Assembly (NCBI GenBank): GCA_004211975.1
Contig: RXIK01000113.1
Span: 1-61,295, forward strand
Reading direction: 5' to 3'
Source: Methanosarcinales archaeon
GTDB taxonomy: Archaea > Halobacteriota > Methanosarcinia > Methanosarcinales > Methanogasteraceae
Length of the DNA: 61,295 nt
Positions 1 to 40,750 of this stretch are shown piece after piece (the stretch's first letter is position 1; each line of letters starts with the position of its first letter). The notes beneath the pieces are model-generated. The model saw only the letters and a program-made list of their open reading frames with translations, did not search any database and was not told the origin of the DNA. The translations under genes were made by a program, and so were the position numbers.

Positions 1-114
1 AAACCGCTGCCCGACACTGAAAGGGTTATGAGATGCTTGAGCGGTATGAGGGGAAACTCTCACGTACCGTTCTTAGACGAGGAGGAGCGGGTAACCGCTT
101 CCTCCTTAGTCTAC
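1..114 (+). mobile_element. Group II intron, 3' terminal part only (domains V and VI up to the 3' splice site). The intron body and any intron-encoded protein lie upstream of the window
   Basis: nt 39-72 GAGCGGUAUGAGGG/GAAA/CUCUCACGUACCGUUC folds into a textbook 34-nt domain V (AGC triad 40-42, AC bulge 62-63, GNRA loop). nt 75-112 folds into a domain VI hairpin (GUAA loop) with a single unpaired A at nt 108, 7 nt before a ...CUAC end at 114. Confidence 0.8.
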
Positions 115-291: not shown

Positions 292-912
292 TCAATCTCT
301 CCTGCGTGCAAAATATATCGCTGCAAGGATGCCAACCACAAATAGAGCCCCGAACCCCGGTGTTTCGAGTTCGGTTTCGGTTTCGTGCTCAGCCACATCA
401 GTCGGAGCAAGGGTCTGAGCCCCGGACGCAGTCTCTGTTACCGCAATTACCTCACTTTCAACGCCATCCCAACTTGCAGGCATCGCATCCGCCATGCTAC
501 TCACGAGCAATCCATCAGAGACCTCCATTGAACATGCACCCGGAACGATCGTCTCAAAGTGTATCGTTGCAAGCGACCCCGATCCGGACACACCGTCAAT
601 ACCAGGGAGATTGAAGAGCACCTGAACATTGTCCTCAGCAACCACCCAGTCATCTATGGGTACTGCGGTTCCACCAACATCACCATCATCAACACCTGTG
701 ACGCTCACGTCATCCGGATTAAAATAGAGAGTAAATTGCCCTGAATCAAGATCTACTACATTTTCCACATCTATCATAACGCTGAAATCACCCTCCGCAA
801 GTTCGGGGGAGTTAATAGTGACACTTGCCTGATCTGCCACCACAAGAGTTGCAGATAGTAGAAGCGTTATCAAAACTATGATAGTTATCGAAACTGTTTT
901 TGATATCATCAA
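292..912 (-). CDS. Secreted single-cohesin protein with a PGF-CTERM (archaeosortase) anchor
   Basis: N-terminal signal/TM (ITIIVLITLLLSATLVVA). Cohesin-like module (SVTINSPELAEGDFSVMIDVENVVDLDSGQFTLYFNPDDVSVTGV...GSGSLATIHFE). Acidic linker. C-terminal TPGFGALFVVGILAAIYFARRRD. Confidence 0.8.
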   Translation of the reverse strand: MMISKTVSITIIVLITLLLSATLVVADQASVTINSPELAEGDFSVMIDVENVVDLDSGQFTLYFNPDDVSVTGVDDGDVGGTAVPIDDWVVAEDNVQVLFNLPGIDGVSGSGSLATIHFETIVPGACSMEVSDGLLVSSMADAMPASWDGVESEVIAVTETASGAQTLAPTDVAEHETETELETPGFGALFVVGILAAIYFARRRD

Positions 913-1008
913 GGCATATTACACTAACATGTTTATAATAAACTTTTCGATGAAGACGCTTACGAGAGAGTTAACTTTAAATACGTCCTATAACAGTTGG
1001 GTTATGCT

Positions 1009-1323
1009 ATGACTGGCTGGGTCTTGATACTGATTGCGGCAATGATCAGCTACATACTTCTTGCCTATTTAGAACACAAGAAGAAGATCGACATGATCGA
1101 TCGAGGACTCTGGAAGCCAGAAGAAAGGAAAGAGAAGCCTGAACATAGGTTAATTAGTGGGATATTCTTCCTTTTATTGGGCGTGGCGCTTCTGATATGC
1201 TCGTACTCGGCGGAACCTGATCTGACGGGTGGATTGAAGATATCAGGTATGCTGACAATAGCAGCCGGAATCACGCTGGTAGCTGCATACATCATCGGTA
1301 AAAAGAGCCACACGGCAGTTTAA
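1009..1323 (+). CDS. Small membrane protein, function unknown
   Basis: ORF with three hydrophobic helices separated by a KKKIDMIDRGLWKPEERKEKPEH loop. First in-frame ATG at 1009 (the track start at 997 is TTG). No family recognised. Confidence 0.45.
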   Translation: MTGWVLILIAAMISYILLAYLEHKKKIDMIDRGLWKPEERKEKPEHRLISGIFFLLLGVALLICSYSAEPDLTGGLKISGMLTIAAGITLVAAYIIGKKSHTAV

Positions 1324-1435
1324 CTTGTTATGTTGGGTGGTTTCTCAAAAACGTCTTCTTTAGCTCATTATATTTTGCGCGTGATTGTGACGGTAACCCG
1401 ACAATGTTTGTGTGGGATAAGCGCATATACGGCCA

Positions 1436-2944
1436 TCAGTTTCGAAGTAGCCACCTCCATAACGGCACGAACACCACCTGCCTGCCATCCATTGTCTCTT
1501 CAGTCTCTGTATCTTTTGTTACAGCATAACCGGAATCGATAGAGAAGTCTTTGAGAAACTTTATCAGCTCTTTTATATCCCTTTTGCGGATATTGCCGCT
1601 GTATTTTGATTCCACAGGCACGATGGATCCATCTTTGAGAATACTACAATCCACATCAAAACCACCCTTCCTCCAGAAGAAGTGAGATCCTGAAGAGTTT
1701 ATTATGAGGTTTTCAACGACCCTGCCATAATCCGGCTCTTCGCACAACGAAAATAGCAGTGTTGTGCTTGACAGATACAGTTTCTTCATTTTCTTTTCGC
1801 TTGTCAGACGGTTCTTTGAGAAGTTGCAAGCATTTCTGTATGAGAAACCCAATCTCCAGATATGAAATGTACTTTGAGAGTGTTTTTCTGCTTATTCCCT
1901 GACTTTCGGCGAACTGAAATAAACATCCCTTATATCGTCACGGTTTTTAAGTGGTTTGAAATCACCGCAGAGGGCGCGGAGTACGCAGAGTTTTGTCGCT
2001 CTGCGTTCCTCTGCGCCCTCAGCGGTTAAATTTCTTGCTTTAATCACCATAGTTTTAACTATATGGTATTGAGCATGTATATTTTTGTGGAAAATTTGCT
2101 AAAAACCCATAATTTATTGAGTGCATTCAAAAACAGTGTTTGTTGGGGATAACAAATACATCGCATTTGTGTGACATGTTTTGGGCAGTAAGTTACATTT
2201 CACCGAAAAATGGGTTATTCCGAGATCATTTGACAGAGAAGCGAAATCCGTGATAATGCAGGGATGCGACGCCACGATCTTGAGTATTCGCTTCAATGTG
2301 TCCGCAATTGTTTATGGGAGATATCTTTGGCAGGTCCTCGTAGATTATCTTGTTCACGATGGACTCCGTATACATGTTGACAAACGACTCGTCAGCGTTA
2401 ACGAGCTCCGGAAGCTGTCTTTTGGCATACAGAAGTGTCTGGTCACGCAGGGATTCCTTAAACATATCCGGGTTCCTGATCAGTTGTTCTTCTCCTTTCA
2501 ATCTCATGAGTTCGGAAAAATTGAGTGCAGGTAACCGGAAAAGAAAAATTCTTCCGGCAAGAGATTCTTCCGCATTTTTCCTTAAGAATACCGAGGATGA
2601 TCCGGAAATAAAGAACTTCAGATTGGGATGGGTGTTGTAGTAGTAGTTCACCTGGTTCTGCCATCCGGCAAGTTTCCGAATCTCATCCATGAAGATAAAA
2701 ATTCTGCCAGCCTCGGATATATCCACACCGATTCTCGACTGAAATTCTGTTATGACATCTTCGATTGTGACTGCTTCCTCGTCAAAGGAGAAATAGAGTA
2801 TTCGGTCCCGCTTCTGCCCGCTTTCCAGTGGCGGTTATGTTTCAGGATGTTTACCATCATCGCGCCAATATGCGTATCTTGTTTCCCATATTATCCAGGT
2901 TTATGGGAATTGAAGGTTACATACTCTGAATGCATCGAACGCAT
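1436..2944 (-). pseudogene. Disrupted AAA+ ATPase of the AAA_14/DUF4143 type
   Basis: Pieces lie in different frames: degraded P-loop with an in-frame TAA (..KPG*YGKQDT..) near 2880-2900; RDRILYFSFDEE...IFIFMDEI (Walker B) in ORF 2226..2726; ..SLSNDLGIT in ORF 2114..2296; then ..GISRKTLSKYISYLE.. and the DUF4143/nuclease-like tail in ORF 1436..1852. Also split by the insertion at 1899-2214. Confidence 0.75.
1892..2221. mobile_element. MITE-like non-autonomous insertion (316 bp) with 7-bp target-site duplication
   Basis: Direct repeat TTATTCC at 1892-1898 and 2215-2221. Removing 1899-2221 restores the reading frame ..DLGISRKTL.. of the ATPase. Imperfect terminal inverted repeats with core TTTCGGYGAA. 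Internal long imperfect palindrome at 1965-2025. No ORF. Confidence 0.6.
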
Positions 2945-3145
2945 ACACAAAACACAAAAAAATAGCCGAGGACACCACCCCCGGATGCCGTCGGGTCATC
3001 ACGTAACCGATGGTCGCACTTGAGTTTGAGTCGCTTGATGCAGGAGTTTATCAGAGACAAGAGATCTGTGTATCATTTTGCATCAAGAACGGTGTCTGTG
3101 CTCCCGAGTTATGAGACTTTAACGGGTGGTGGGGCGGCTCCCCAC

Positions 3146-3499
3146 CTACTTGCTTGGCACATAGATCATTCCACCATCCTGCATCTCATATATTGTTCCG
3201 ACCGTCCCGATAACATCCTCTTCGATCATCGTCTCGCTCATATTCAGTGTCTTGATCTCTTGCCCGCTCTTGACAATTACCTCCATTGTGGGCTCGCCCG
3301 GGTTTTTCACGATTGTCACATCCTGATCTGGCGTGATCAGTTCTGGCAGGTGGTATGAGGTCACAAGCGCGATAAGGAGTGCGACAGCAAAGACCATCGC
3401 TACATCGAAGAGGTTTGTAACTCCGCCCATCGGGTTTTCGCCGTATCGTTTCTTTCTGTTTCTGCCGCGGTTTCCGTTATTTCCGTTCTTCAGATACAT
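3146..3499 (-). CDS. ExbD-like single-pass partner protein (DUF2149-type)
   Basis: Basic N-terminus, one TM (NLFDVAMVFAVALLIALV), then a small beta-rich domain (VTIVKNPGEPTMEVIVKSGQEI...GTIYEMQDGGMIYVP). Overlaps the MotA/ExbB gene by 23 nt. Confidence 0.6.
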   Translation of the reverse strand: MYLKNGNNGNRGRNRKKRYGENPMGGVTNLFDVAMVFAVALLIALVTSYHLPELITPDQDVTIVKNPGEPTMEVIVKSGQEIKTLNMSETMIEEDVIGTVGTIYEMQDGGMIYVPSK

Positions 3500-4136
3500 T
3501 AGAATCTCCGTATATCATGTCGCAAATATATCTCATGTCGTCGATATCCTGATCGTACCACCTGCTCCGCACAATCGAGATCGCGTACGATATGCCGCCC
3601 ACAAGAAGACCGAGCACGGTTGTTCCGAACGCGATGATCATGTTGTTTGCAAGAAGCTCAACGTCTCCTGCCGCAAGCCCTGCAAGCGCGGGACCCATCG
3701 GGATCAGGGTTCCCATCAGCCCGAGCATCGGACCGATTCTCGAGACAAGGTTCGTCCGTTCAAGTCGTTTCGTGATGAGCGTGTCATACTCATGAAGCAG
3801 CTTCTCGATCTCCACCTGGAGGATGTCATCAACCGGGATATTGCGAAGATCACTTATGAATGCGTACACAAACGCTCCGGACATTGAACCCCTGATCAGG
3901 TCGAGCGCATCACCGAAGTTACCGTCATTTGACAGTTCTCTCGCTGTTCTGACCTTTGTCAGGTCCCTTGTCCGCTTTAGCCGCATGTAATGCTCATAAC
4001 CAAACGTTCCGCTCTCTATGATCAGGTATGTAACGAGTATCAGCAGTGCAAGTATCACCGGATACAAAAGCAGCGTGGATATCGTGTATACCGCTTCCTG
4101 AAGCGCTATCGGTAGATTCAGAATACTTATTGTCAT
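3477..4136 (-). CDS. MotA/TolQ/ExbB-family proton channel protein
   Basis: N-terminal TM plus a C-terminal helix pair with the family signature (RIGPMLGLMGTLIPMGPALAGLAAGD...MIIAFGTTVLGLLVGGISY). ATG overlaps the stop of the upstream giant gene (ATGA at 4133-4136). Confidence 0.85.
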   Translation of the reverse strand: MTISILNLPIALQEAVYTISTLLLYPVILALLILVTYLIIESGTFGYEHYMRLKRTRDLTKVRTARELSNDGNFGDALDLIRGSMSGAFVYAFISDLRNIPVDDILQVEIEKLLHEYDTLITKRLERTNLVSRIGPMLGLMGTLIPMGPALAGLAAGDVELLANNMIIAFGTTVLGLLVGGISYAISIVRSRWYDQDIDDMRYICDMIYGDSNVSEERK

Positions 4137-7100
4137 TTCACATATCTCCTGTATCTCCCCCGCTCCTTTCGTATCCCCTGCACAAGCAGCCCGAGCAGGA
4201 TCAGTATCGCGAGGATCGCCATAGTATAGCTGACATAGCCACCGCCCGCACCACCGGTCTTAAGCTCCGTTCCCATCGGGTAGCCCTTCGCCTTCTGTTT
4301 CATACCTGAAGTAGTCTCGGTCTCGTTGATCACAGCCTCGATCCCTGCCTCAGTTGCGTCTTTGTCCGTACCATCCCCAAAGTCAAAGTACTTGCCAAGA
4401 TAGCCACTACCACGCGGACCAATGCCCTGCCGCACTTGTGTATTGGGTGAGGTTTCAGAGTTACCTGGCGGGTCGTTTCCAGGCGGTTCACCACCACCAC
4501 CATCATCGCAGGGAACCGTCACCCCCATCATATTATTGTACTCATCCCGTTCAGGGATATCGCCACCACTGTCCGCATACACCTCCAGATTCCCGCACGC
4601 TCCGTGAAGAGAGAGCGTTACAGCCACAGACTCGCCCGCATCAAGCGCATCCACCGTGTGCTCGTCGATCACACGTCCCCATTGCCTGAGCGCGACCCTG
4701 AAGCTCTCGTTCGTTCCGCCTGTGCCGATGTTCTTGATGGTTGCATGAACCACGCCGCCACCTGCGGATGCGGCTGTGACCACGAGGTCCGGCTGATCCC
4801 TTCCCCCGAATGCGTACAATCGGTTCCCGCCGATCGTGTAGATCCTGCCGTAAGCGATGTATGGGGATGAGCCGCCGTATGGCGAGCTCCAGAGTTCTGT
4901 GCCATTGTATGCGTCGAGGCACTTCAGTCCGTTGTAGTTGAAGTTGCCCGCGCTGACCCCGACAAAGACCTTGGCGTCCCTCGAAACTGCGGGGGAGTTG
5001 GTCCATGAACCAACCTTTTCGCTGCCCCAGATCAGTGAGCCGTTTGTGGCATTGAAACAGTACACGCCACTTCCGGAGAATCCACTGCATCCGCCAACGA
5101 CATAGATATACTTCTTGTCCGAGTCGCCCGGTGCAAAGTATGCAGGTGTTGAGTCTGTGCGCTGTACCGGATAGTTCCATAAGATGCTTCCGTTGAATGC
5201 GTCAAGACAGTTGAATCCGCCAAATCCCATGCCAAACTCATACGTGGATGCATAAACCACGCCGTCCACGATAACCGGCGCGCTGTAGACGTCATGCTTG
5301 AGGCTTGTGTTCCAGACCACTGCACCATCCAGGGTCAGGCAGTAGAGATCACCGCCCCGTCCATAGTATATCCTGCCGTACTTCGGGGTCGGGGTTCCAA
5401 GATGTCTTATGGGTGGCAGATACGTCGAGGTGTTCCAGAGTTCTCCCCCGGTCTCCACATCCAGACAGAATAGGTTTCCTTCACTTGATTCAGGGCATGT
5501 CATGGAAGGGTCCGTATGTAAAGACCTGTAAAATGACGTGACATAAACCCTCCCACCACTGATCGACGGACCTGCGTTGCAGTTTGCGCAGCAATCAGAG
5601 AACGTGTAGTCCCAGAGGATTCTCCCGGTCCTGCCAGCGATCCTGTAGACGTGCATTCCTGATGCGATGAAGATACTGCCGTTGTGGTACGCGGGGGACG
5701 ACCATGAACCGTACTCAGCAGGCGCAATCTCGGTTGCCCATAGCATCTCCCCGTTTGTGGCATTGAGCGCAACCATGTAAGTGTAATCGCTTGATGAGAA
5801 TCCCTCGTTTCCTGTGCAGTAGACAAAGACGGTGTCATCTGCAACAACGATCGATGTGGATCCTCCGGCAAAGATGTCCTCACTCACCCATGCAAGATGC
5901 GGCTCATCAGGCGTGTCGCAGTCAAAGTACCGTGCATTCCCGCCGAGTCCCCCGCTTGCAGCATCGCCATTTAAGACTATGACTGTGTTTGAGGTGTACA
6001 CCCCTCGAAGGATGTACCACCGTGCCGTAATCCTGATCAGATACTCGCCATCAGTGTGGTTTGTGGTGTCCCACAGATAGACTCCATTATAATTTACAGC
6101 GTGTGTTAAATTGGTCGTGTTGCTTGCGTTGGCTGCGTTGGTTGCGTCAGTAGCATTAGTGGCATTGCCACCTTTGATCAGATTCTCTGTTAGATTTGCA
6201 GTCAGTCTCGGGTCGCACGTCAGGTTCGATGCAAGCATGGTCCACTCAATCCCGTAGTTCGAGCTGTAGAGTAGGTCGATTGTCAGATTCTTATCGTGGA
6301 GTGCCTTCCACTTGATCGGATGGATTCCGCCACATATCTCGCCGATTCTTGGCGATACGAGTTCCAGTTGAATCTCGTTTGCGACGAACGCCTCTCCTGT
6401 GTGGTTGTTGTTGCTTTCGTTAGTCTCATTCACATTGTTATCCGGATCCACGACAACAGTCAGGTTGTGCCACCCCTGAAAGTCTGGCTGCCACCAGATC
6501 GTCAGGTTTCCGTCATTGTATGTGTCAAGGTCTGTAGCATTGATGATCGCCAGGTTGGTGACGTTTGTTGTATTGGTGGCGTTTCCAGTCCCGTCCCGGA
6601 CTGTGATCATACCGCCGGGCATGTCTCGTGCGTATGCTATGAGAGTCGCATTGAACCCTTCGGCAGTTCCGGTAACAGGTATAATTATCCTGTTCGTCTT
6701 GTTCAGATACATGATATCAGGAAGTATCCTGATCGGGACGAGATCGGTTCGCGTCACGTTTATGACGCTGCTTAAGTTGTTATTAGTCTCCTCCGTCTCT
6801 AAAATACCACCATCCGAATCAATGACCGCTGTTACAGTGTGATTCCCAAGACTCGTCGGCTTGTACGTAAGATTCACGCTTGTCTGCCCGTAGCAGGTGA
6901 TATTTGTTGCATTCGCAACCACAGCGCCGTTCTCCACAAGCGAGACATTAAACTCCTCGGCAGTGCCATCTATGGTAACTGTAATATTATTTCTGGCGCG
7001 TACAAATGCCACGTCCGGAGTCAGACAGACGGGCACCAGATCGGGTAAGATAACCATGCAATCGAGTGTGGCTGCATTGTTTGTCTCACACACCTCCCGC

Positions 7101-10100
7101 ACCTCGCCGTCCGGATCTGCGACAATCGAGATGTTATGGTTGCCTTTGGCACCTGGTCTCCACTCGTAAGAGAGATTGGTACTACTCCTTATACCCGCAA
7201 CCATTCTTCGGTCCACCTCCACGCCATCCGCAACAAATGAAACATTGAAATGCTCGTCAGTTATTCCGGAGACGTTTGCGTTGATGAGGTTCGTTACGTT
7301 CACGTAGATACTGTCCGGAAGCACCACATCCGCGATCGCAAGGTCAGGGAGGCTTACGTAGACCTCTCGCGTCAGATTATTGTTCTCTTCGTACCGCTCA
7401 TCGACCCTGCCGTCCGAATCGACAAAGACAGTTATATTGACGAATCCATCACTTGACGGCACCCATTCAAGCGAGAACGGGATATCTGATATCTCGGGGT
7501 CGTACCATATCGACCGCACCGTCGTTACGGATGTGGAGACACCGTCCTCAAGGAGGGATACATTAAACATCCCGCCATCGCAACGCAGTGTCCCGTGCAC
7601 GGTGCAGCTTGTATTGACGTAGATGGTGTCAGGAACCTCGATTTTGCCGGTCGGGGATATATCCGGCATCGGATAGGAATCGATATCCGTGATCCTTGGG
7701 GGACATGGGCACGTAGCAAGCGCAGGGACCACCTTTGCGGTGGTATATCTCGGGAAGAACGACTGGTTCGTTGTATAGTTGAACGATCCGTCTGGCTGTT
7801 GCAGGCTCATCAGATAATCGATCGGTGTTACGCTATCGTTTATGCTTGTATTCCTCCATTCGAGCGGGTTCTCGCCCATGGCAATGATCGCCTGCACCGC
7901 ACACGCGGTTGTGACCGCGTCTGAGAGGTTGCCATCGTGACCGATATTCCTGCGCAGGAACTCAAGAGCATCTATCGTTATGTTGGAATCCGGCGGTTCG
8001 CCTGCCGCAACAAGCGCCTGTATTATGAATGCGGTAGTCCTCAAATTGCTCGTAACTTCAAATATGGCGTTTCCATTCGTCGTGTTCCCGCTTGTGGTGT
8101 TTCCGTCAGTTGTGTTTCCATTCGTCGTGTTTCCGTCGAGTATGTCATCGGTTTCGTTCGTATTTCCATTATTGTGATTCTCAATTATCCTGCTCCAGCC
8201 GCCATCCTCGTTCTGATGGGATACAATGTAACCCCGTGACTTGTTGATCCTCTCTGCGGCGCTTCTATCGCCACACGCGGTGAGTGCGAGGATGCCGAGT
8301 GCGTCATCGTTCACAGAAACGGGATCGCCAAACTGGACGCCGTCATGGTACGATTTCACCATTGTTAGGTAGTTCACGTTCCCGAAGTTCGTTGGGTCGA
8401 TGTCCCCGAGCACGCTTATGGCAAGTAACGTGCGTGCACAGTCCTCAAAGGTTGCGATCACGAAATCGTTGTATGGGAGCAAGGGATAGGCTGCAAGATA
8501 GTCAGCGAGCGATCTGCCATAGAGCTTCCGTTCACGAGGGTCTTCCCTTGCGGCAGCGATCGCAAGAACGGCCCATGCAGAGGTTGAGAACGGACCGATG
8601 CTGCCACTGCTCGGGGTCTGTTTCGCTTGCAGGAACTTAAGTGCAACTGCGACGTGACCCCGGCGCTTGTATGGCAGTTCATGTATCTCGGTGGTGATGG
8701 ATCTCTCTGTCTGAAACAAGACTACCGAGTCGTTAATCGATGCAACGAGGGATACTTCGCAAATTCCGGTGCCTTCGGGCTTCCGGACAAATTCCAGAGT
8801 CTTCTGCTTACTCTTGAGTAATTTAATGCGTCTTGACTCGATCATCTCGTTGTTTACTGTCAGGTTCACGGTAATATCAGTAATTCTCTGCGAGTTCTGG
8901 CTGATCACCGCGGTGACTCTGTCTTTCACTCCGGCGTAGGCTCTCTGCGGCAGCGTGATCGATTTGATCGTTAGATAATACTCCTCAGCATAAGGCTTGC
9001 AAAGGGGATAATAATCGCTTGTGTTATTACTTATGTTGTGTGGCACGTCCAGGATTCCATCATCATCATCATCATCGGGATCCGCACCTGTCCAGCTATC
9101 CCAGTAGTTCCCTATATAATTCACAAAGGTGGTGTTGTTGTGTCTGTAACTTAGCGGACTGCTTGCGTTCCAGTGGTTGTTCTGCCCGGTATCTATTGCA
9201 AACGTGTTTTCCGGGCTATCTCCAGCTTCTGCAAAGAACAGACCGTTGGCATAGATCGTGTTGTTATTTCCCTGCACCTTGATTGTGTAACAGCAGTCGC
9301 AGATCATGTTGTTATAGATCGTATTGTCATCAGATTCTGATGTGATCAAGACGCCTGGCGTTGCAAAACGGAAACCCCAACTGGGGGGAGACAAACTGCC
9401 TGACATGAAGTTATCCGCTATCAAACAGTCTGTTGAACCCTCGATTCTTATGAGGGAACTGCTATCAGCCCATGAAGCATGTGTCAGCAGAAGATTTGTG
9501 AGTGAGATCTTCTCAGACTCCGTTATGTTGATTGCCCGCCAGCCCTCAGGAAATTGACTTCCATACGATGAGTCAACCCGTACTACAAATCCATCGAGCT
9601 CAATATTGCTTGAGCCTACTATCCCTATCAGATTGGGTCTGGCGCGTCCGGCGGGGCTGCCATGGGCTATGATTCTTGTGTCTTCGCCACTGCCAAGTAT
9701 CTTCAGGTGATCTCTGTTTGTTATGGTCAATCTACTTTCATAGTCCCCCTCATCGACGTGAATCACAGTATACGTGGTGGAATTGTCCACCGCCCACTGG
9801 ATGGTTGTATAATCATCCGGCACTCTAATGACCAGTGTCTCCCCCACAACCACATCTCCTGATAGGATATTATTGTCCTCATACCACTCATCGACCTGAT
9901 TATCATAATCAATCTCAATTCTGATTGTGTGATCTCCCGCGTCTTCCGTCACCCAGTCAAAGGAGACGGTCGCTTCTTCCATCGGTGAAAGTGACGGAAG
10001 CGTCCGCAGATCAATCACCTCGCCGTTATCCACAAGCACCACACAGAAGCCGCCTGATATGGTTGCGCCCCGGTTCATAACAGTTGTCCCAACAGTCGTC

Positions 10101-10843
10101 TCGAAGTGTGTGTGCAGATCAGATCCGACTGTAAGTTCACCTATTGAGAGCTCAGGAAGCAGCGCGGGAAGTTCCGCATCTTCACAGCTCCAGATGATCA
10201 CATCTCCAGCTGTAAGGGGGTGATCCTCTGACACATTAGTCCATCCATCTGATTTGGAATCGTACAGATGCACAACAGGGCTTTTGATACCGTCGATTCC
10301 GGTTACATTTCCTCCACTCGATTCAAATGCCTGGTTTAGCATCCCACATGCAATCTCTGTGGCATTCATGAGTATGAAATCTGATCCTCGGTTCAGAAAC
10401 AGTGGCTGGTAGTGGATTGTTTCGTCCGAATCGAGGATCAGCACAACAGCATCCACGGATTTGAATGTGATGTTGTGAATCAAGTTCAGTTGATCTGCAT
10501 CAGAGACTGTGTACGTGGAGATGTTTGTGGTTCCGGCATCCCTATTTATAGAATCAAACTGTAGCACATCCCCCGAACAAATATCTGATCTGTTGAGAAC
10601 GAGTTTGTAATGGTTGTGACTGGTATCTGCATCCCACGTTCTGCTCGTGTTCAGGTTCGTAATCCCCACAGTGAAATTGCCGCAGACAATCCCGTTTTCA
10701 TAAACTGCCGATCCTGCGATAAGAAAAGGTATTGGAGGTGCGGGCGCGAACAACGGTTGTGCTGCTACGAGCGCAATAGCAATTGTGCACAGCAGAACAA
10801 CAGGGAGTACACGGGAAGTTCTTCGTATCCTTGCAACCATCAT
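4133..10843 (-). CDS. Giant (2236 aa) C-terminally anchored multidomain surface protein
   Basis: Signal/TM. Domain order read from the translation: ~90-aa NYY beta-sandwich; CARDB; NosD-like right-handed beta-helix (..YIGNYWDSW..DYYPL); CARDB-like; alpha/alpha toroid (HQNEDGGWS, QQPDGSFNY); four tandem CARDB (each ending E.NN); Ig-like; PQQ-like beta-propeller; CARDB; G/P-rich linker; TM plus basic tail (ILAILILLGLLVQGIRKERGRYRRYVK). GAGGT lies 8 nt upstream of the ATG at 10843. Confidence 0.85.
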   Translation of the reverse strand: MMVARIRRTSRVLPVVLLCTIAIALVAAQPLFAPAPPIPFLIAGSAVYENGIVCGNFTVGITNLNTSRTWDADTSHNHYKLVLNRSDICSGDVLQFDSINRDAGTTNISTYTVSDADQLNLIHNITFKSVDAVVLILDSDETIHYQPLFLNRGSDFILMNATEIACGMLNQAFESSGGNVTGIDGIKSPVVHLYDSKSDGWTNVSEDHPLTAGDVIIWSCEDAELPALLPELSIGELTVGSDLHTHFETTVGTTVMNRGATISGGFCVVLVDNGEVIDLRTLPSLSPMEEATVSFDWVTEDAGDHTIRIEIDYDNQVDEWYEDNNILSGDVVVGETLVIRVPDDYTTIQWAVDNSTTYTVIHVDEGDYESRLTITNRDHLKILGSGEDTRIIAHGSPAGRARPNLIGIVGSSNIELDGFVVRVDSSYGSQFPEGWRAINITESEKISLTNLLLTHASWADSSSLIRIEGSTDCLIADNFMSGSLSPPSWGFRFATPGVLITSESDDNTIYNNMICDCCYTIKVQGNNNTIYANGLFFAEAGDSPENTFAIDTGQNNHWNASSPLSYRHNNTTFVNYIGNYWDSWTGADPDDDDDDGILDVPHNISNNTSDYYPLCKPYAEEYYLTIKSITLPQRAYAGVKDRVTAVISQNSQRITDITVNLTVNNEMIESRRIKLLKSKQKTLEFVRKPEGTGICEVSLVASINDSVVLFQTERSITTEIHELPYKRRGHVAVALKFLQAKQTPSSGSIGPFSTSAWAVLAIAAAREDPRERKLYGRSLADYLAAYPLLPYNDFVIATFEDCARTLLAISVLGDIDPTNFGNVNYLTMVKSYHDGVQFGDPVSVNDDALGILALTACGDRSAAERINKSRGYIVSHQNEDGGWSRIIENHNNGNTNETDDILDGNTTNGNTTDGNTTSGNTTNGNAIFEVTSNLRTTAFIIQALVAAGEPPDSNITIDALEFLRRNIGHDGNLSDAVTTACAVQAIIAMGENPLEWRNTSINDSVTPIDYLMSLQQPDGSFNYTTNQSFFPRYTTAKVVPALATCPCPPRITDIDSYPMPDISPTGKIEVPDTIYVNTSCTVHGTLRCDGGMFNVSLLEDGVSTSVTTVRSIWYDPEISDIPFSLEWVPSSDGFVNITVFVDSDGRVDERYEENNNLTREVYVSLPDLAIADVVLPDSIYVNVTNLINANVSGITDEHFNVSFVADGVEVDRRMVAGIRSSTNLSYEWRPGAKGNHNISIVADPDGEVREVCETNNAATLDCMVILPDLVPVCLTPDVAFVRARNNITVTIDGTAEEFNVSLVENGAVVANATNITCYGQTSVNLTYKPTSLGNHTVTAVIDSDGGILETEETNNNLSSVINVTRTDLVPIRILPDIMYLNKTNRIIIPVTGTAEGFNATLIAYARDMPGGMITVRDGTGNATNTTNVTNLAIINATDLDTYNDGNLTIWWQPDFQGWHNLTVVVDPDNNVNETNESNNNHTGEAFVANEIQLELVSPRIGEICGGIHPIKWKALHDKNLTIDLLYSSNYGIEWTMLASNLTCDPRLTANLTENLIKGGNATNATDATNAANASNTTNLTHAVNYNGVYLWDTTNHTDGEYLIRITARWYILRGVYTSNTVIVLNGDAASGGLGGNARYFDCDTPDEPHLAWVSEDIFAGGSTSIVVADDTVFVYCTGNEGFSSSDYTYMVALNATNGEMLWATEIAPAEYGSWSSPAYHNGSIFIASGMHVYRIAGRTGRILWDYTFSDCCANCNAGPSISGGRVYVTSFYRSLHTDPSMTCPESSEGNLFCLDVETGGELWNTSTYLPPIRHLGTPTPKYGRIYYGRGGDLYCLTLDGAVVWNTSLKHDVYSAPVIVDGVVYASTYEFGMGFGGFNCLDAFNGSILWNYPVQRTDSTPAYFAPGDSDKKYIYVVGGCSGFSGSGVYCFNATNGSLIWGSEKVGSWTNSPAVSRDAKVFVGVSAGNFNYNGLKCLDAYNGTELWSSPYGGSSPYIAYGRIYTIGGNRLYAFGGRDQPDLVVTAASAGGGVVHATIKNIGTGGTNESFRVALRQWGRVIDEHTVDALDAGESVAVTLSLHGACGNLEVYADSGGDIPERDEYNNMMGVTVPCDDGGGGEPPGNDPPGNSETSPNTQVRQGIGPRGSGYLGKYFDFGDGTDKDATEAGIEAVINETETTSGMKQKAKGYPMGTELKTGGAGGGYVSYTMAILAILILLGLLVQGIRKERGRYRRYVK
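8067..8141 (-). repeat. 5 x 15-nt imperfect in-frame tandem repeat encoding (G-N-T-T-x)n sequon tract
   Basis: gtgtttcc(a/g)t(t/c).gt. units. Protein reads DGNTTNGNTTDGNTTSGNTTNGN inside the giant protein. Confidence 0.9.
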
Positions 10844-10961
10844 CAATCATACCTCAACAATCAGATCATTATGATTCTAAACAAATCTACCTTATGTTAA
10901 ATGTTATGAGTGTGTCTGTGCTTCTGACATGTCCATCCGTCTAACTGGTGCATCGATAGCT

Positions 10962-12364: not shown

Positions 12365-14083
12365 CTATTTTAGTTCCTCGTATCCACTGATTCCAACAAC
12401 ATGCTTTGCCAGATACATGGCATCGGCTGATGTTATCTTGTCGTCGCCATTGACATCCGCGGTCTCTTTGTATATCTTCTCGAATCCTTCAATTCCAAGC
12501 ACATGTTTCGCAAGATACATGGCGTCATGAATATCCACCGCGCAATCAGAATTGACATCGCCGTTTAAGAATGTGATATACGTCCCGTTCCTCACCGTAT
12601 ACAGCATCCTCTTACCCTCGGGAGTCGCATCCTTAAACGTCGTGACACTCAGATTCAATGGGGATATGCTGCCACCGTCGCCGACAGGTTCGAGCGTAAC
12701 ATTCGCAAAAATTATGTCTCCAGGGAGTCCCGGGTTATTTGCCTGGTATGCGCCGATGCGCACGAATCCCTCGCCTATGTGCTCGAGATTTGCCACGTTA
12801 TCATCGAAATTACCGCCTGTTACGTCTGTGACATTCACAACCGATGAGTTGAACGTGAGCGTGATATCACACGCACCGATATTTACGGCGTTCTCGATTG
12901 TAATTGGCAGAGTCACGACACCGGTACCATTGCCGATGCTGATTATGGCTTCACCGGTTCCGATAACCTGAATCGCCTCGGTGTTGTTGTAGACTAACGA
13001 GTTCACGCCATCATCCATCGTGATATTCACCCGATACGTGCCACCCCTGACAATGACTCCATCATCGTCCGTGCCAGTCCACACTCGCGGGTTCGGATCC
13101 GTTACCTCGGTACATATAAACAGCGATTTCACAACGCCACCATCTACGTTCTCGATTCTGATCGAAGCCTCCACAGCCTCTGAGAACTCGACATCGATTG
13201 TGGTGTAGTCCTCAACCCAGTCTCCATCCGGCGAGATCGTGGTGTTTGAAATCGTGTATGTGGTGAGGTATGGTTCAGGATCTGTGGGATCAGTTGCCAA
13301 CTGAACGATTACGCTCACAGCCACTGTCTTTGTTCCGCCGTTTGAACTCACAGTTACCGTTCCGCTGTGAGCACCACCGGATAGTCCGGTCGTATCAGCA
13401 GTCACCTTGACAGTACCTGCGTCTGACCCGCTCGCCGGGCTAACAGCAATCCACGCCTGGTCGCTCGTGACGTTCCAGTCCAGCGTTCCTGCACCGGAGT
13501 TTGTTATCTCAAATGTGAATGTCTGTGTCTGTGTATTGCCCGTCCGAATACTTCCGAAGTCATGCGATGCCGGGTTGACGCCGAGAATCGGACCTGTAGC
13601 CTCACCAGTGACCGTGAATACGCCATCAATGTCGGTTCGCGGTTCTATCTGAGCGTTGGCTGTATCGATCAGAGCACCGGTTGTAATGTCAAGTACGCTC
13701 TCTTCTCCCGGATTACCATCCACCCTCAATGTGACGGTTGCAAGCAATACGTCCGCACCGGTTACATCCGCATCTATGCTGAGAGGACCTATAACCACCT
13801 TGCCGGTTTTGTTGCTGGCTATAACGCTCATATCCATCCCGAACTCAGGATTGGTCTCTTCGCCAACCACCATAACGATATCAGGATCATATCTAAGGGT
13901 TACCGTGAACCCCCGCAGATGTTCCACATCATGGCATCTGATCTCGGCAGTGGTCGTGAGACCGGGATCTGCCGAAGCGTTCGCGATAATTATTGTTGGT
14001 TCTGCAGATGCGGCAGGGATCATGCCGAGCAGGCATATCACAATTCCTATTGTTGCAAGCAACATTTTATGTATATTATTCAT
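12365..14083 (-). CDS. Adaptor scaffoldin: cohesin, Ig/BACON-like, FlgD-Ig-like, cohesin, dockerin
   Basis: Start moved to MNNIHKMLLATIG (signal peptide), which removes the overlap with 14100..15185. Two cohesin modules. C-terminal duplicated calcium-loop dockerin (GDVNSDCAVDIHDAMYLAKHVLG / ADVNGDDKITSADAMYLAKHVVG). Confidence 0.8.
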   Translation of the reverse strand: MNNIHKMLLATIGIVICLLGMIPAASAEPTIIIANASADPGLTTTAEIRCHDVEHLRGFTVTLRYDPDIVMVVGEETNPEFGMDMSVIASNKTGKVVIGPLSIDADVTGADVLLATVTLRVDGNPGEESVLDITTGALIDTANAQIEPRTDIDGVFTVTGEATGPILGVNPASHDFGSIRTGNTQTQTFTFEITNSGAGTLDWNVTSDQAWIAVSPASGSDAGTVKVTADTTGLSGGAHSGTVTVSSNGGTKTVAVSVIVQLATDPTDPEPYLTTYTISNTTISPDGDWVEDYTTIDVEFSEAVEASIRIENVDGGVVKSLFICTEVTDPNPRVWTGTDDDGVIVRGGTYRVNITMDDGVNSLVYNNTEAIQVIGTGEAIISIGNGTGVVTLPITIENAVNIGACDITLTFNSSVVNVTDVTGGNFDDNVANLEHIGEGFVRIGAYQANNPGLPGDIIFANVTLEPVGDGGSISPLNLSVTTFKDATPEGKRMLYTVRNGTYITFLNGDVNSDCAVDIHDAMYLAKHVLGIEGFEKIYKETADVNGDDKITSADAMYLAKHVVGISGYEELK

Positions 14084-14099
14084 TTTTTGTGTCACCTCG

Positions 14100-15185
14100 T
14101 TATACTCCGGGATAGAGATCCGGATAGTCGGGATCGCCATACGAATACTTGATTAGATGCATCACGTCCTGAAAAGCGCCTGCCGTACCTATTGTACCAT
14201 CACCATTGCAATCGGGATTGTCAAATATCTCAGGATAGTCAGGATCACCATACGAATACTTGATTAGATGTATCGCGTCCTGAAAAGCGCCTGCCGTACC
14301 TGTTATACCATCGCCGTTGATGTCCCCGCTCATTGGGTCTCCAGACTCTGCACCGTAATTCTCAAACGGCTCCATCAGAGGATAATGGTATTTTTCTATA
14401 CTACCACCGAATGGTACATACCGCTCAGCTCCAATACCATCACCTTTGTCCTCACCGACATAGTCATCCCAGTAGTTGCCCATGTAACTGGTGTAGGTAG
14501 TATCCTTATACGTATAGGTCATCTGAACCGGGGAACTCCATTCGTTCCGGGTGCTATAGGCGAAGACGTGGCCCTTGGCATCGTGATTGTTGATGAAGTT
14601 ATTCAGATATACAATGTTGTTAGAACTATCCTTATCATAGAGACTTAACTTATCCATGTTAGAGATCGTGTTCCGCCTCAGGATGCTTCCGGTACTGCCA
14701 CTAGTAAACCAGACTCCTTCGTCGCATCGATCAATGAGATTGTCCTCAATGATCGTTCCTTCTATATCTTCCGGGAGGTTGTCGGTTCCGACAGATACTC
14801 CGAACGCGGTACTGCCGGTGTGGGTGATCGTGAAGCCCCGCAGGACTACGCCTGAAGCCAGGATGTGGACCGCATCGTTACTGTGATGCGCAACTCCGGA
14901 AACACCTCCGGCATCGATGACGGGCTGACCAACACCCTCCAGTGTCAGTCTCTTCTCGACTTTGAGCCTTTCGTTGTAGGTTCCGGCATAGACCTTGATT
15001 GTGTCCCCGTCGCCGGACTCGTTTATCGCATCACCGATTCTCGTATAGTCGGCATCCGGGTACTCAGCCCCATTATCGTCCACATGCCATGTCTCTGCTG
15101 CCACTGGCAGCGCAATCACAAGCATAGCGACAATAGCTATGCCTGCGAGCGTTATAATTCGTTTCGTTCGAGTTTTTCTGTTCAT
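14100..15185 (-). CDS. Secreted NosD-like right-handed beta-helix protein with an atypical duplicated dockerin-like tail
   Basis: Signal peptide. AETWHVDD..GDTIKVYAGTYNERLKV..LTLEG; beta-helix rungs; YMGNYWDDYVGEDKGDGIG..YHYPL. Tail is two copies of (D/C)(I)NGDG(I/T)(T/I)GTAGAFQD.(I/M)HLIKYSYGDPDYP. Confidence 0.75.
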   Translation of the reverse strand: MNRKTRTKRIITLAGIAIVAMLVIALPVAAETWHVDDNGAEYPDADYTRIGDAINESGDGDTIKVYAGTYNERLKVEKRLTLEGVGQPVIDAGGVSGVAHHSNDAVHILASGVVLRGFTITHTGSTAFGVSVGTDNLPEDIEGTIIEDNLIDRCDEGVWFTSGSTGSILRRNTISNMDKLSLYDKDSSNNIVYLNNFINNHDAKGHVFAYSTRNEWSSPVQMTYTYKDTTYTSYMGNYWDDYVGEDKGDGIGAERYVPFGGSIEKYHYPLMEPFENYGAESGDPMSGDINGDGITGTAGAFQDAIHLIKYSYGDPDYPEIFDNPDCNGDGTIGTAGAFQDVMHLIKYSYGDPDYPDLYPGV

Positions 15186-15217
15186 TGTTACCTCCTCTAT
15201 GTTCTTCTAAGTTTTCG

Positions 15218-16159
15218 TTACCGATTGGCTGCCTCATAAAGGATCATCAGTGCGTCCAGTGAGGTGACCTGATCGTCTCTATTCACATCGGCTATCTGCG
15301 AGTATTCACCCTCAACTGCCATCTGTAAGGTGAGAAGGGCGTCTTCCGATGTGATTTCACAATCTCCGTTGAGATCTCCGGGCAGACTTCCAATGGTGAT
15401 ATTGAATAGACGGGATCCACCATTTCGAACGTCCTCAGGAGTCACGGTGTATTTTGCACTCGCTGACCCGTCGCCGTGCAGGGCACTGAATCGCATCGTT
15501 TCGCAACAATCGATGTCAGTGCCTGCGGTGAGCAGGAGCCAGTAGTAATTGCAACCATCATTGGTTGTTGCCTGCCACTGCACACCGCTCTGATTGGACA
15601 TGCTCACAATGGGACCATTACACTCGCTCCCGTCTCCGTGGAACACAAAACCTGATACTAAAAACGGCTTTGGTGCCGCAGAACCCGCAACAACAAATGC
15701 ACCATCGATATCGGTTCGCGGTTCTATCTGATCGTTGGCTGTATCGATCAGAGCATCGGTCGTGATGTTCAGTACGCCCACGTCTCCAGGATTACCATCC
15801 GCCCTCAATGTGACGGTTGCAAGCCAGACGTCATCGCCAGTTACATCCGCATCTATGCTGAGAGGACCCAGAACCACATCGCCGGTTTTGTTGTTGGATA
15901 TAACGCTCATATCCATCCCGAACTCAGGATTGGTCTCTTCGCCAACCACCATGACGACATCGGGATCGTATCCAAGGGTTATCGTGAACCCCAGCAGATG
16001 TTCCACATTATGGCATCTGATCTCGGCAGTGGTCGTGAGACCGGGGTCTGCCGAAGCGTTCGCGATAATTATTGTTGGTTCTGCAGATGCGGCAGGGAGC
16101 GTGCCAGGCAGGCATACCGCAATTACAACTGTTACAAACAATACTTGACATATTTTCAA
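15218..16159 (-). CDS. Cohesin, NYY beta-sandwich, dockerin protein
   Basis: TTG start with AGGAGGT 7 nt upstream. Signal peptide. Cohesin about 88-90% nt-identical to the N-terminal cohesin of 12365..14083. PFLVSGFVF..CNGP..NYYWLLL module. Dockerin GDLNGDCEITSEDALLTLQM../ADVNRDDQVTSLDALMIL. Confidence 0.8.
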   Translation of the reverse strand: MKICQVLFVTVVIAVCLPGTLPAASAEPTIIIANASADPGLTTTAEIRCHNVEHLLGFTITLGYDPDVVMVVGEETNPEFGMDMSVISNNKTGDVVLGPLSIDADVTGDDVWLATVTLRADGNPGDVGVLNITTDALIDTANDQIEPRTDIDGAFVVAGSAAPKPFLVSGFVFHGDGSECNGPIVSMSNQSGVQWQATTNDGCNYYWLLLTAGTDIDCCETMRFSALHGDGSASAKYTVTPEDVRNGGSRLFNITIGSLPGDLNGDCEITSEDALLTLQMAVEGEYSQIADVNRDDQVTSLDALMILYEAANR

Positions 16160-16186
16160 TTGTTTTACCTCCTTTCTGTTATTTCA

Positions 16187-16855
16187 TCACATCAGTTTCT
16201 CGTACCCGCTAATTCCGATCAGATGCTTCGCGAGATACATTGCATCGTGCGACGTGACCTCGCCGTCGCCATTCACATCCGCGGCTTCCGGGACGATCTC
16301 CTCAAATCCGGTAACTCCAAGCAGATGCTGCATCAGATAAATGGCATCATGCATGTCCACCCTGCGATCGGAATCAGCATCGCCGTTTAAGAATATGGTA
16401 CACGTCCCGTCCCCGGTGACCTGCGGCACTATCTCGTAGCCCGGGTCAATGAGTGTTGCGTCCGCAACACAGAGAGTGCTCACAGAACCCGCATCTCCGG
16501 TTGCAGTCAGCTTGAGGTTGGCAGGGACTGCATCGCCGCTCTGCCCGGTTATGTTGATTGCGTTCATGCGCACCCATCCGGACTCGTTATTGATCATGTG
16601 TGTGAGAAGCTCCATATTTCCTGAGATAACATCGGTTACATGGACGACCGAAGCATCGTACGTGACATTGATGTCGCATCCGCCCAGTCCTGTTGCGTTT
16701 GTTATTTGAACCGGTACCGTCACCGTGCCGCCGGATTCAAGAGCGCAGTTAACAATCTCCACGCAGACGGTTGTGGCTGTGGCTCCGGCAGGTGCCAGCG
16801 AGATCAGGAGCAGCATGACAACACCCGGAACTACCAGTTGTCTCCATTCGGTCAT
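16187..16855 (-). CDS. Minimal cohesin-dockerin protein
   Basis: Signal peptide. One cohesin (GGCDINVTYDASVVHVTDV). Dockerin (GDADSDRRVDMHDAIYLMQHLLG / ADVNGDGEVTSHDAMYLAKHLIG). Confidence 0.8.
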   Translation of the reverse strand: MTEWRQLVVPGVVMLLLISLAPAGATATTVCVEIVNCALESGGTVTVPVQITNATGLGGCDINVTYDASVVHVTDVISGNMELLTHMINNESGWVRMNAINITGQSGDAVPANLKLTATGDAGSVSTLCVADATLIDPGYEIVPQVTGDGTCTIFLNGDADSDRRVDMHDAIYLMQHLLGVTGFEEIVPEAADVNGDGEVTSHDAMYLAKHLIGISGYEKLM

Positions 16856-16884
16856 GAAACCAAAAAATGAAGGAGGATGACTGA

Positions 16885-17928: not shown

Positions 17929-17986
17929 TGTAATCGTCTCCTGTCTTCTACAGTTTCAAAAAAATAAGGTGATTATGGTAATCACC

Positions 17987-19702: not shown

Positions 19703-19736
19703 TCTATAGTACCTCCATTCTGTTTTATTGAAGTGT

Positions 19737-20657: not shown

Positions 20658-20659
20658 AT

Positions 20660-21436: not shown

Positions 21437-21510
21437 GTCATCCTCGTTTGCAAAAAGAATAGCCGATGGCACCCTTCCCGGATGCCATCATGCCATCACG
21501 CAACCACACT

Positions 21511-32410: not shown

Positions 32411-32445
32411 CTTGTTTACCTCCTAAAAAATAAAAAAGAATTATG

Positions 32446-40713: not shown

Positions 40714-40750
40714 CTGATTTACCTCCTAAAAAATAAAAAAGGATTATGTT

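Follow-up and report, generated by a model that had tools for sequence, protein, structure and literature searches.

In this analysis of a 61,295-nucleotide stretch of DNA from a Methanosarcinales archaeon of the family Methanogasteraceae (assembly GCA_004211975.1, contig RXIK01000113.1, positions 1 to 61,295 of the forward strand; the whole stretch is hereafter the window), we describe three consecutive minus-strand genes that encode a giant surface protein (4133..10846), an ExbB/TolQ-like stator A subunit (3477..4136) and a DUF2149 protein presumed to be the inner (B) subunit (3146..3499). We favor, with moderate confidence, a model in which the two small proteins are an ion-driven motor that acts mechanically, and independently of TonB, on the giant, which is tethered at its C-terminus. 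The model draws on the homology of the A subunit, an aspartate within the transmembrane (TM) helix of DUF2149, a gene order with overlaps that recurs in relatives, a C-terminal module of the giants (the C-module) that is tied essentially to ExbB, and the separation of ExbB clades by partner type.

The 219-amino-acid product of 3477..4136, which has three TM helices, is by profile comparison and structural modeling an A subunit of the ExbB/TolQ/MotA type. With Pfam MotA_ExbB (PF01618; cut-off 22.9 bits) it scores 38.1 bits (E 1.5e-9). A single-sequence phmmer search against the PDB gave nothing useful, and a match there needed a profile: the one built from 21 relatives (alignment A1) matched E. 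coli ExbB (5sv0) over residues 21-195 (E 1.2e-3), and hhalign against E. coli ExbB plus TolQ returned 78% probability (E 1.8e-5), with the channel threonines T143 and T173 (minus-strand codons 3708-3710 and 3618-3620) aligned with T148 and T181 of ExbB. T143 is invariant in the family, and T172 and T173 are near-invariant, the latter being invariant in alignment A1. The AlphaFold model (pLDDT, predicted local distance difference test, 83) places helices at residues 8-54, 60-98, 106-156 and 159-209, with the long TM1, small helical cytoplasmic domain and TM2-TM3 hairpin expected of the ExbB/TolQ fold; the top 50 PDB matches of this model in Foldseek are all ExbB, TolQ, PomA or MotA (probability 0.92-1.00, TM-score at most 0.55). 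The closest relatives are found in Candidatus Methanogaster (anaerobic methanotrophic archaea, ANME, group 2c; 81% identity) and Candidatus Argoarchaeum ethanivorans (77%).

The 117-amino-acid DUF2149 protein (3146..3499, minus strand; PF09919, 98.4 bits) consists of a basic cytoplasmic N-tail, one TM helix and a beta-rich ectodomain of about 60 residues. Its D32 (codon 3404-3406, minus strand) lies in the single N-terminal TM helix, in the motif NLFDVAMVF within GVTNLFDVAMVFAVALLIALV, which parallels TPFIDVMLVLL of ExbD and VPLLDVLLVLL of TolR; this aspartate is kept in 22 of the 23 sequences of alignment A2 and is invariant in A4. Across the loci of relatives described below, the DUF2149 gene lies directly 3' of 76 of the 88 ExbB-like genes, usually with an overlap of 23-56 nucleotides. 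Because of this downstream position and the key TM aspartate, we assign DUF2149 to the B-subunit place. Its likeness to ExbD is demonstrated for the TM helix, and the ectodomain is predicted to be all-beta: hhalign against ExbD/TolR, with two sequences on the ExbD side, aligned the TM region alone (E 0.005, probability 6.8%), a phmmer search of the PDB gave no ExbD, TolR or MotB match, and the AlphaFold model built from database homologs, which is of low confidence (pLDDT 62), has five beta strands and no helix in the ectodomain and found no PDB match below E=1 in Foldseek. A sequence-only reading of this DNA had called the pair a MotA/ExbB plus ExbD-like stator. That description stands for the A subunit, on the evidence of Pfam, profile, hhalign and AlphaFold, and for the near-invariant TM aspartate and its helix in DUF2149; for the fold of the DUF2149 ectodomain the model is too low in confidence to allow a firm negative.

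The sequence itself bears out the gene overlaps that had been reported earlier. The stop of the giant and the start of the ExbB-like gene share an ATGA at 4133..4136 (minus strand; ATG 4136-4134, TGA 4135-4133), and the ExbB-like and DUF2149 genes share 23 nucleotides (3477..3499, minus strand). About 160 nucleotides past the DUF2149 stop there is a terminator-like hairpin followed by a T-run (2955..2984, minus strand), a probable end of the unit that we keep as a hint, and upstream of the giant there is an A/T-rich intergenic region of 115 nucleotides (10847..10961, minus strand), where an archaeal promoter and a ribosome-binding site (GAGGT) may lie. Because of these two boundaries, the three genes may form a separate unit. 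A sigma-70 promoter scan returned 16 sites against 12.2 expected and is not meaningful for an archaeal host.

The same arrangement recurs in relatives. A scan of 185,579 species genomes yielded 589 relatives, and the 80 best loci were retained for open reading frame (ORF) calling and hidden Markov model searches; the loci number about 90 overall, and those scanned for the C-module cover about 1.2 Mb. Among the loci retained, the giant, the ExbB-like gene and the DUF2149 gene form 18 non-redundant modules, distributed over ANME-2c (Methanogaster), Argoarchaeum, Syntrophoarchaeum, ANME-1 and related metagenome-assembled genomes (MAGs), including one from Methanosarcinales. A giant CARDB protein is followed by ExbB-like and DUF2149 on one strand at ExbB identities of 81%, 77% and about 45-50%; the 4-nucleotide overlap of giant and ExbB is present in 10 of the 18 modules, and in 16 the two genes overlap or lie no more than 6 nucleotides apart. 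One locus (L008, MAG CSMAG_2052) is 94% identical and probably belongs to the same species as the window. The recurrence of both order and overlap argues that the arrangement is not due to chance, and the neighborhood survey that the sequence-only reading had called for thus finds ExbB/DUF2149 pairs next to giant CARDB genes across several orders.

Three cases in this set deserve separate mention. In the Methanophagales isolate AOM70-1 (L025, about 500-9960), the region upstream of ExbB is split into many short CARDB-like ORFs and a 66-amino-acid C-module remnant, reflecting either a pseudogenized giant or frameshift errors in the assembly; locus L005, whose ExbB is near-identical to that of L025, has an intact giant of 3703 amino acids. 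Contig PQXF01000017.1 of Candidatus Methanogaster carries two copies of an ExbB-like/DUF2149/Exosortase_EpsH series about 12 kb apart (L012, 161-2465; L001, 10001-12281), and in the first copy DUF2149 is cut down to a 56-amino-acid ORF. An annotated 208-amino-acid ORF between giant and ExbB at L004 has no TM helix and no Pfam match, is Ser-rich and of low complexity, and is probably no real gene.

The feature common to every giant upstream of ExbB whose C-terminus is available is the C-module of about 90-120 residues, in which poly-Gly leads to a sequon for N-glycosylation (P[VI]N[EA][ST]), then to G[YFH]P[MF]G and, past a Gly-rich spacer, to a TM helix that closes with an invariant Gly (alignment A5) and is followed by [YI]xKE[KR]R with further basic residues, the conserved motif lying 12-15 residues outside the TM helix and not at its start. 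In the window giant it occupies 4136..4501 (minus strand, residues 2116-2237), with a Gly-rich linker, an AVINET sequon, KGYPMG, GGAGGG, the TM helix (4181..4237, minus strand, residues 2204-2222, hydropathy 2.41) and the basic tail GIRKERGRYRRYVK. The ectodomains that precede it vary widely, with toroid, beta-helix and propeller each in some giants; the toroid, considered as an element common to all partners, is absent or undetected in the giants of L005, L015, L016, L020 and L032. Twenty-four ORFs with a C-module were found in the 1.2 Mb of loci, and 22 of them stand immediately before ExbB, the other two being the L004 giant, with the doubtful ORF in between, and a CobN-like partner with a weak match at its C-terminus. 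The window's remaining secreted proteins lack the C-module. Because the loci had been chosen through ExbB, the protein database was also searched with the C-module alone: the profile search returned ten short contig-end fragments and no full giants, and a single-sequence search of 1.84 billion representatives found 5. For the module-selected fragments that were looked up, MotA_ExbB followed directly in 3 of 3 and then DUF2149 in 2 of 3. We propose, from this pattern in the sequences, that the C-module is a coupling handle between giant and motor. One of the three fragments (L092, 1334-2342; L093, 406-1357) is a stand-alone protein of 76 amino acids, with little beyond the C-module, that precedes a gene called as 108 amino acids of MotA_ExbB, and this may be a minimal or a degraded version of the system.

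The giant itself is 2237 amino acids long if read from TTG at 10846, or 2236 if read from ATG at 10843. Its layout comprises a signal peptide (10757..10846, minus strand, residues 1-30, ending VLLCTIAIALVAAQP, from sequence and hydropathy), an N-domain, CARDB, a NosD-type beta-helix, CARDB, an alpha/alpha toroid, four CARDB domains, an Ig-like region, a PQQ propeller, CARDB and the C-module. Pfam detects CARDB in 6 stretches (215 bits), the PQQ_2 propeller (99 bits; 4802..5869, minus strand, residues 1660-2015) and, weakly, an SQHop_cyclase_C toroid, whereas segment searches resolve seven CARDB-type domains (residues 231-330, 625-708, 1061-1159, 1167-1258, 1275-1359, 1375-1481 and 2032-2107). 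Jackhmmer segment searches show the right-handed beta-helix (8987..9844, minus strand, residues 335-620) to be homologous to NosD/Beta_helix regions in three window genes (28889-32410, 37069-40713 and 14100-15185), with Pfam NosD recognized on the paralogs. The toroid (7667..8509, minus strand, residues about 780-1060) has QW-type repeats and a low-complexity GNTT insert, and matches the QW repeats of squalene-hopene cyclase (E 7.8e-7, phmmer against the PDB). The protein contains 76 N-x-S/T sequons and has its beta-helix, propeller and N-terminal domain in common with neighboring secreted proteins of the window. The earlier description of a C-terminally TM-anchored giant with beta-helix, toroid, seven CARDB-type domains and propeller was therefore accurate.

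The ExbB-like/DUF2149 pair is present several times per genome, each time with a different neighbor, and a comparison of the giant-linked modules (class A) with these other pairs is informative. In class B, found among archaeal paralogs, DUF2162, ExbB-like and DUF2149 are followed by a CobN-like protein of 1300-2040 amino acids with a signal peptide, Ig-like repeats and a C-terminal TM helix with basic tail; class C, in monoderm Thermoleophilia, joins a 600-720-amino-acid toroid-plus-Ig protein with a C-terminal TM helix to a longer ExbB and a longer DUF2149; and class D, again archaeal, has a fused longer ExbB, DUF2149 and a BatD/DUF11 protein of about 520 amino acids with a signal peptide and a C-terminal TM helix. 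What these arrangements have in common is that a stator-type pair adjoins an extracytoplasmic protein whose tether is a C-terminal helix. Where more than 3 kb of flank was available on both sides, 25 of 38 pairs have a neighbor of at least 400 amino acids with a signal peptide and a C-terminal TM helix, compared with 22 of 255 other ORFs of at least 400 amino acids, by crude hydropathy criteria under which several misses are start-codon artefacts. In an indicative neighbor-joining tree of 84 ExbB-like sequences the clades split by partner class, and the window ExbB falls outside the CobN-linked clade; within class A the tree follows the C-module subtype, even for two modules of a single MAG (L020 and L050).

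The two genes have been met before in another setting. HmuU, a MotA/TolQ/ExbB protein, and HmuV, a DUF2149 protein, belong to the heme de-chelatase operon of Bacteroidota (PMC11681262, PMC10434189), and arCOG03208 has been called 'linked to TolQ' in methanogens, so that the pair is not unprecedented (PMC11681262, PMC9425974). HmuS, the large extracytoplasmic protein of that operon, has a predicted C-terminal TM helix (PMC12583661), and HmuU and HmuV are uncharacterized, with HmuV described as lacking homology with known families (PMC13227078). To judge from its genes, class B is the archaeal counterpart of Bacteroidota hmuSTUV. DUF2162 and CobN-like genes are present at L028, L029, L035-L038, L049, L052, L058, L061 and L063, and neither was among the window ORFs scanned with Pfam. 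The archaeal CobN/Mg-chelatase-family proteins of such loci (L035, 11309-17425; L049, 9875-14536; L063, 5219-9187; L058, 10969-15939; and others) are clearly extracytoplasmic: they start with a signal peptide, contain CarboxypepD_reg/Ig repeats and carry RRKR after a TM helix at the C-terminus. They adjoin DUF2162, ExbB-like and DUF2149 and bear on the role of the many archaeal HmuS/CobN homologs (PMC12583661). In nine Thermoleophilia MAGs (L055, L057, L059, L060, L062, L064, L070, L074 and L082, at about 7.8-11.6 kb), the toroid and Ig protein, with signal peptide and C-terminal TM helix, ends in a conserved cytoplasmic tail, GGGSAWERFK...SKDL, and is followed by an ExbB-like protein of about 335 amino acids and a DUF2149 protein of about 195 amino acids with a Pro/Thr-rich extension. 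A toroid homologous to that of the window giant is found in some class-A giants and in all Thermoleophilia partners.

In the mechanism that we propose, the ExbB-like protein would form the outer ring, a pentamer by analogy with solved homologs, and DUF2149 would contribute inner, ion-carrying helices with the Asp. The giant would be tied to this motor through its C-module, the TM helix with its invariant Gly packing against the ExbB-like ring and the KE[KR]R cluster forming a cytoplasmic collar, and the membrane-proximal N-x-S/T and G[YFH]P[MF]G motifs on the outside would be within reach of the small DUF2149 ectodomain. Ion flow would rotate or pull the handle, and its movement would do mechanical work on an ectodomain that lies outside the cell, beyond the reach of ATP. 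If ion flow moves the handle to drive the ectodomain in this way, the C-module would play the part of the N-terminal anchor of TonB or TolA, built into the cargo and in the opposite topology. Our analysis suggests that the ectodomain binds, handles or remodels something within the cohesin-dockerin surface assembly encoded upstream. The sequence-only reading had left it open whether the stator acts on the extracellular complex or secretes and assembles it; the comparative evidence from the partners and from the CobN context favors the former, a choice that we infer. None of the checks run on that reading spoke against it, and the conserved C-module gives it a sharper form. Cytoplasmic class I chelatases require AAA+ ATPase subunits. 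The CobN context favors energizing over exporting because an extracellular CobN-like enzyme has no access to ATP, whereas its cytoplasmic class I relatives need that ATPase. In Bacteroides thetaiotaomicron, HmuS is membrane-bound via terminal helices and its reaction is ATP-free (PMC12583661).

Several points weigh against this model. The loci were fetched through ExbB, so most of the linkage counts are one-sided, and the ExbB-independent test consists of three cases, all of them short contig-end fragments. In two ANME-1 modules about 200 nucleotides separate giant and ExbB, and a TM-anchored neighbor is missing in some relatives: at L014 (304-2898) and L018 (6015-8603), in two Methanosarcinales MAGs, a protein of about 862 amino acids before ExbB ends in a dockerin-like repeat and not in the TM-containing C-module (with a 4-nucleotide overlap with ExbB at L014, and at L018 no DUF2149 after ExbB despite 3.6 kb of room), and at L072 and L079 no such neighbor appears. 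The tree of ExbB-like sequences carries no support values. DUF2149 lacks a demonstrated ExbD fold, given the TM-only alignment, the low model confidence and the empty PDB search reported above, and the likeness of the handle to TonB or TolA is functional, not structural, because its helix has the opposite topology. Finally, we infer the stoichiometry, the physical contact, the transmission of force and the role of the ectodomain, which tells against the model where contact, stoichiometry and ion flow are concerned.

An alternative that we regard as unlikely, and that fares best among those considered, is that the pair is a biogenesis motor, which inserts C-tail-anchored giants, exports them, threads them through the surface (S-) layer or controls their quality, and does not power them once in place. 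All partners do have a C-terminal TM anchor that needs post-translational insertion after export of a very long ectodomain, and tight translational coupling would place the motor where the C-terminus of the giant emerges. Yet the giants carry ordinary Sec-type signal peptides and therefore need no special exporter, and other large secreted or anchored proteins of the window, such as the TM-anchored cohesin protein 20660-21472 and the PGF-CTERM proteins, do without a motor. Partners of about 430-600 amino acids have motors as well, and so does the 76-amino-acid protein that is little but the module. We know of no 5:2 motor that inserts proteins.

Rather more doubtful is an uptake function, in which the anchored exoprotein would capture a metal, tetrapyrrole or corrinoid, and the ExbB-like and DUF2149 proteins, with DUF2162 where present, would form or gate the import route. 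The toroid of the giant and the DUF4430 domain encoded at 21511-23751 in the same cluster together recall the two-domain layout of cobalamin carriers, DUF4430 being presumably similar to the domain at the C-terminus of transcobalamin. Some modules have cobamide genes nearby (CbiA in L002; CbiD and CbiM in L006), but such neighbors are inconsistent between loci; similarly, class-B loci combine the pair with DUF2162, a 'predicted transporter', and CobN-like chelatases, but class-A modules have neither DUF2162 nor another permease. The partner ectodomains (CobN, toroid, BatD/DUF11, CARDB/propeller) are, moreover, too diverse for one class of ligand, and to our knowledge ExbB/TolQ/MotA complexes conduct only ions. 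Uptake is further favored by the fact that the pair corresponds to HmuU/HmuV of heme-uptake operons, for which HmuTUV has been proposed to carry heme or iron across the inner membrane (PMC12094164, PMC13227078); however, in solved ExbB, TolQ and MotA complexes the pore of the ring is filled by B-subunit helices (10.64898/2026.03.26.714534).

It is very improbable that the C-module is a sorting signal, cleaved and lipid-anchored by an archaeosortase-like enzyme, with ExbB/DUF2149 as merely co-located envelope genes. With its three parts, a motif, then a TM helix, then a basic cluster, it is reminiscent of signals for exosortases and archaeosortases, an Exosortase_EpsH gene directly follows DUF2149 in Candidatus Methanogaster, and the partner at L019 carries a genuine PGF-CTERM. 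Against this, the NCBIfam sorting-domain models give no match at E<=10 in the last 90 amino acids of the giant, while window gene 292-912, used as a control, scores 2.3e-5 with PGF_CTERM; the distance of the conserved motif from the helix is likewise out of keeping with such signals. An archaeosortase neighbor occurs in Methanogaster only, among the roughly 90 loci, and not in the window, and a sorting role would leave both the ExbB linkage of the C-module and the co-variation of subtypes unexplained. That the genes adjoin and overlap merely through the tight packing of a compact genome is scarcely credible, for although overlapping genes are common in archaea, several orders keep the arrangement at ExbB identities of 44-50%, the C-module hardly occurs away from ExbB, and the ExbB clades track the partner types. 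A defense motor of the Zorya type was also considered and set aside, as the PADLOC models match none of the three proteins.

A motor that acts on the C-tethered giant is therefore the account that we retain, and it can tentatively be widened. HmuU/HmuV-type pairs may possibly constitute a separate and widespread branch of 5:2 motors, in archaea and in monoderms, that operates without TonB, TolA or an outer membrane, each pair powering one C-tethered exoprotein through a built-in handle. In ANME and alkane-oxidizing archaea the handle would be the C-module and the cargo the giant surface protein; for ectoenzymes of the CobN/HmuS type the motor would replace the AAA+ ATPase subunits; and the 'vestigial, incomplete Ton systems' of monoderms would be functional machines. 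If the motor model is true, single-membrane cells can deliver the energy of the membrane potential to proteins outside. This could account for the consistency with which methanogens retain the TolQ-like/DUF2149 pair (PMC9425974), for the role of HmuU and HmuV in the heme de-chelatase operon of gut bacteria, left open in PMC12583661 and PMC13227078, and for the survival of ExbB-like genes in monoderm bacteria, whose copies have been judged probably non-functional (PMC12204202). Surface systems of ANME, cohesin-dockerin among them, have been proposed to support syntrophic cell-cell interaction (PMC9012536), and an energized giant surface protein would be directly relevant to the building of consortia. 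The C-module offers a concrete target for mutation, and the hmu system of Bacteroides a genetically tractable proxy.

The genomic setting of the three genes is that of a surface-protein cluster. Archaeal housekeeping genes (L37ae, exosome, SBDS, proteasome alpha and LeuRS in Pfam scans) occupy 50-57 kb, and between 10.9 and 47.8 kb every large gene lies on the minus strand and encodes a signal peptide, the products including cohesin-plus-dockerin proteins, NosD/CARDB/PQQ proteins of about 1200 amino acids, PQQ propellers, and MG2- and CARDB-like proteins. Extensive dockerin and cohesin proteins are known in ANME genomes, in a description that does not include ExbB, MotA or CARDB (PMC9012536). 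Seven secreted cohesin proteins are arrayed at 12365-21472 (minus strand), all but one of them with a dockerin in addition, and a beta-helix protein (14100-15185) is interleaved; two of the array proteins have two cohesin stretches each, plus BACON, FlgD_ig or CHU_C-like domains, and the last (20660-21472), which combines a cohesin with a TM anchor at its C-terminus, may serve as the membrane scaffold. A secreted protein of 746 amino acids (21511-23751, minus strand) has CARDB, DUF4430 and a dockerin-like tail at its end; a weak DUF4430 match is also seen at L001. A two-gene unit is duplicated in tandem at 28889-34254 and 37069-42577 (minus strand), each copy encoding a NosD beta-helix, CARDB and PQQ protein (1173 and 1214 amino acids) and then a PQQ propeller protein (602 and 608 amino acids), with nearly identical N- and C-termini in the two copies.

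Toward the contig start, what look like two halves of one disrupted ATPase gene lie directly 3' of the motor genes (1436-2726, minus strand), as fragments with AAA_14 (2226-2726) and with DUF4143 (1436-1852). Gene 292-912 (minus strand) encodes a secreted protein of 206 amino acids with a weak cohesin match, whose C-terminus, ETPGFGALFVVGILAAIYFARRRD, matches PGF-CTERM (E 2.3e-5), and gene 26620-27819 ends in a similar tail, IPGFSG...SKRR. Because of the match of 292-912, we conclude that the host uses sorting of the archaeosortase-A type for other surface proteins. The first positions of the contig carry a group II catalytic intron domain (37-114, plus strand; Rfam RF00029, 61.6 bits against a gathering threshold of 40, full model covered). 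Between the surface-protein cluster and the housekeeping genes, at about 47800-50300, the GC content is lower (0.45), the AT skew is reversed and the ORFs are short throughout; no tRNA or Rfam family was found in this interval.

Ion-driven 5:2 motors are known to us from MotAB/PomAB, Ton, Tol, GldLM and Zorya, all of them bacterial, and the non-flagellar ones deliver their output via TonB, TolA or a shaft in the periplasm. A published survey of MotAB relatives is confined to bacteria (PMC12505986), and incomplete Ton systems in monoderms have been described as likely non-functional (PMC12204202). Zorya ZorAB resembles the archaeal pair in being a non-flagellar, MotAB-like 5:2 motor with an unusual output, and differs in its long ZorA tail and its ZorC and ZorD genes, for which the window has no counterpart, just as it has no PADLOC match. 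The giant resembles the substrates of archaeosortase/PGF-CTERM sorting as a surface protein with many potential N-glycosylation sites that has a motif, a TM helix and a basic tail at its C-terminus, and one relative has an EpsH-family gene beside the module; the lack of a curated sorting-domain match, the other placement of the motif and the lack of a consistent archaeosortase neighbor set the two apart. GldLM/PorLM is an ion-driven motor of the 5:2 type in the cytoplasmic membrane of Bacteroidota that powers the movement or secretion of giant surface adhesins. It runs along an outer-membrane track that the window system does not have, its GldM is a long periplasmic shaft in contrast to the tiny DUF2149, and no match to GldL or GldM was seen in sequence or in fold, the top 50 PDB matches of the ExbB-like model all being ExbB, TolQ, PomA or MotA.

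The Tol-Pal and Ton systems offer further comparisons. Tol-Pal uses the same class of stator, TolQ structures being among the fold matches of the ExbB-like model, and TolA is long and extended like the giant, with a single TM helix as its link to the motor; in contrast, TolA is N-terminally anchored and has no sequence relation to the C-module, and the window lacks Pal, TolB and a peptidoglycan context. With the Ton system the window shares an A subunit of the ExbB fold that has three TM helices and keeps the two channel threonines, an immediately downstream gene for a small partner with one N-terminal TM helix and a conserved Asp, and a third protein with a single TM helix as the presumed recipient of force. 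The differences lie in the recipient, which is here the cargo itself and is held by a C-terminal helix (N-out, C-in), whereas TonB has an N-terminal one, in the ectodomain of DUF2149, of about 60 residues and predicted to be all-beta, where an ExbD fold is undemonstrated, and in the envelope: the host is an archaeon without an outer membrane, and the Pfam-scanned ORFs of the window include no TonB, TolA or TonB-dependent transporter family, in agreement with what the sequence-only reading had stated.

Another close system is HmuSTUV, which has the same gene pair and whose exact layout (DUF2162, ExbB-like, DUF2149, CobN-like) is shared by archaeal paralogs of the window pair. The window module departs from it in lacking CobN-like and DUF2162 genes, in having as partner a CARDB/beta-helix/toroid/propeller giant with a C-module of its own, and in an ExbB that belongs to another clade than the CobN-linked ones. 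It had been supposed that there was no described archaeal precedent; in the literature searched, whose coverage is incomplete so that an earlier description elsewhere is possible, this holds for the C-module and for the archaeal giant/ExbB/DUF2149 module, and not for the gene pair, which is known as HmuU/HmuV and from methanogens. Set beside these systems, our analysis suggests that what is new here, in a pair of genes already known, is an archaeal motor of the ExbB/TolQ type that dispenses with TonB and has its coupling element integrated into the cargo.

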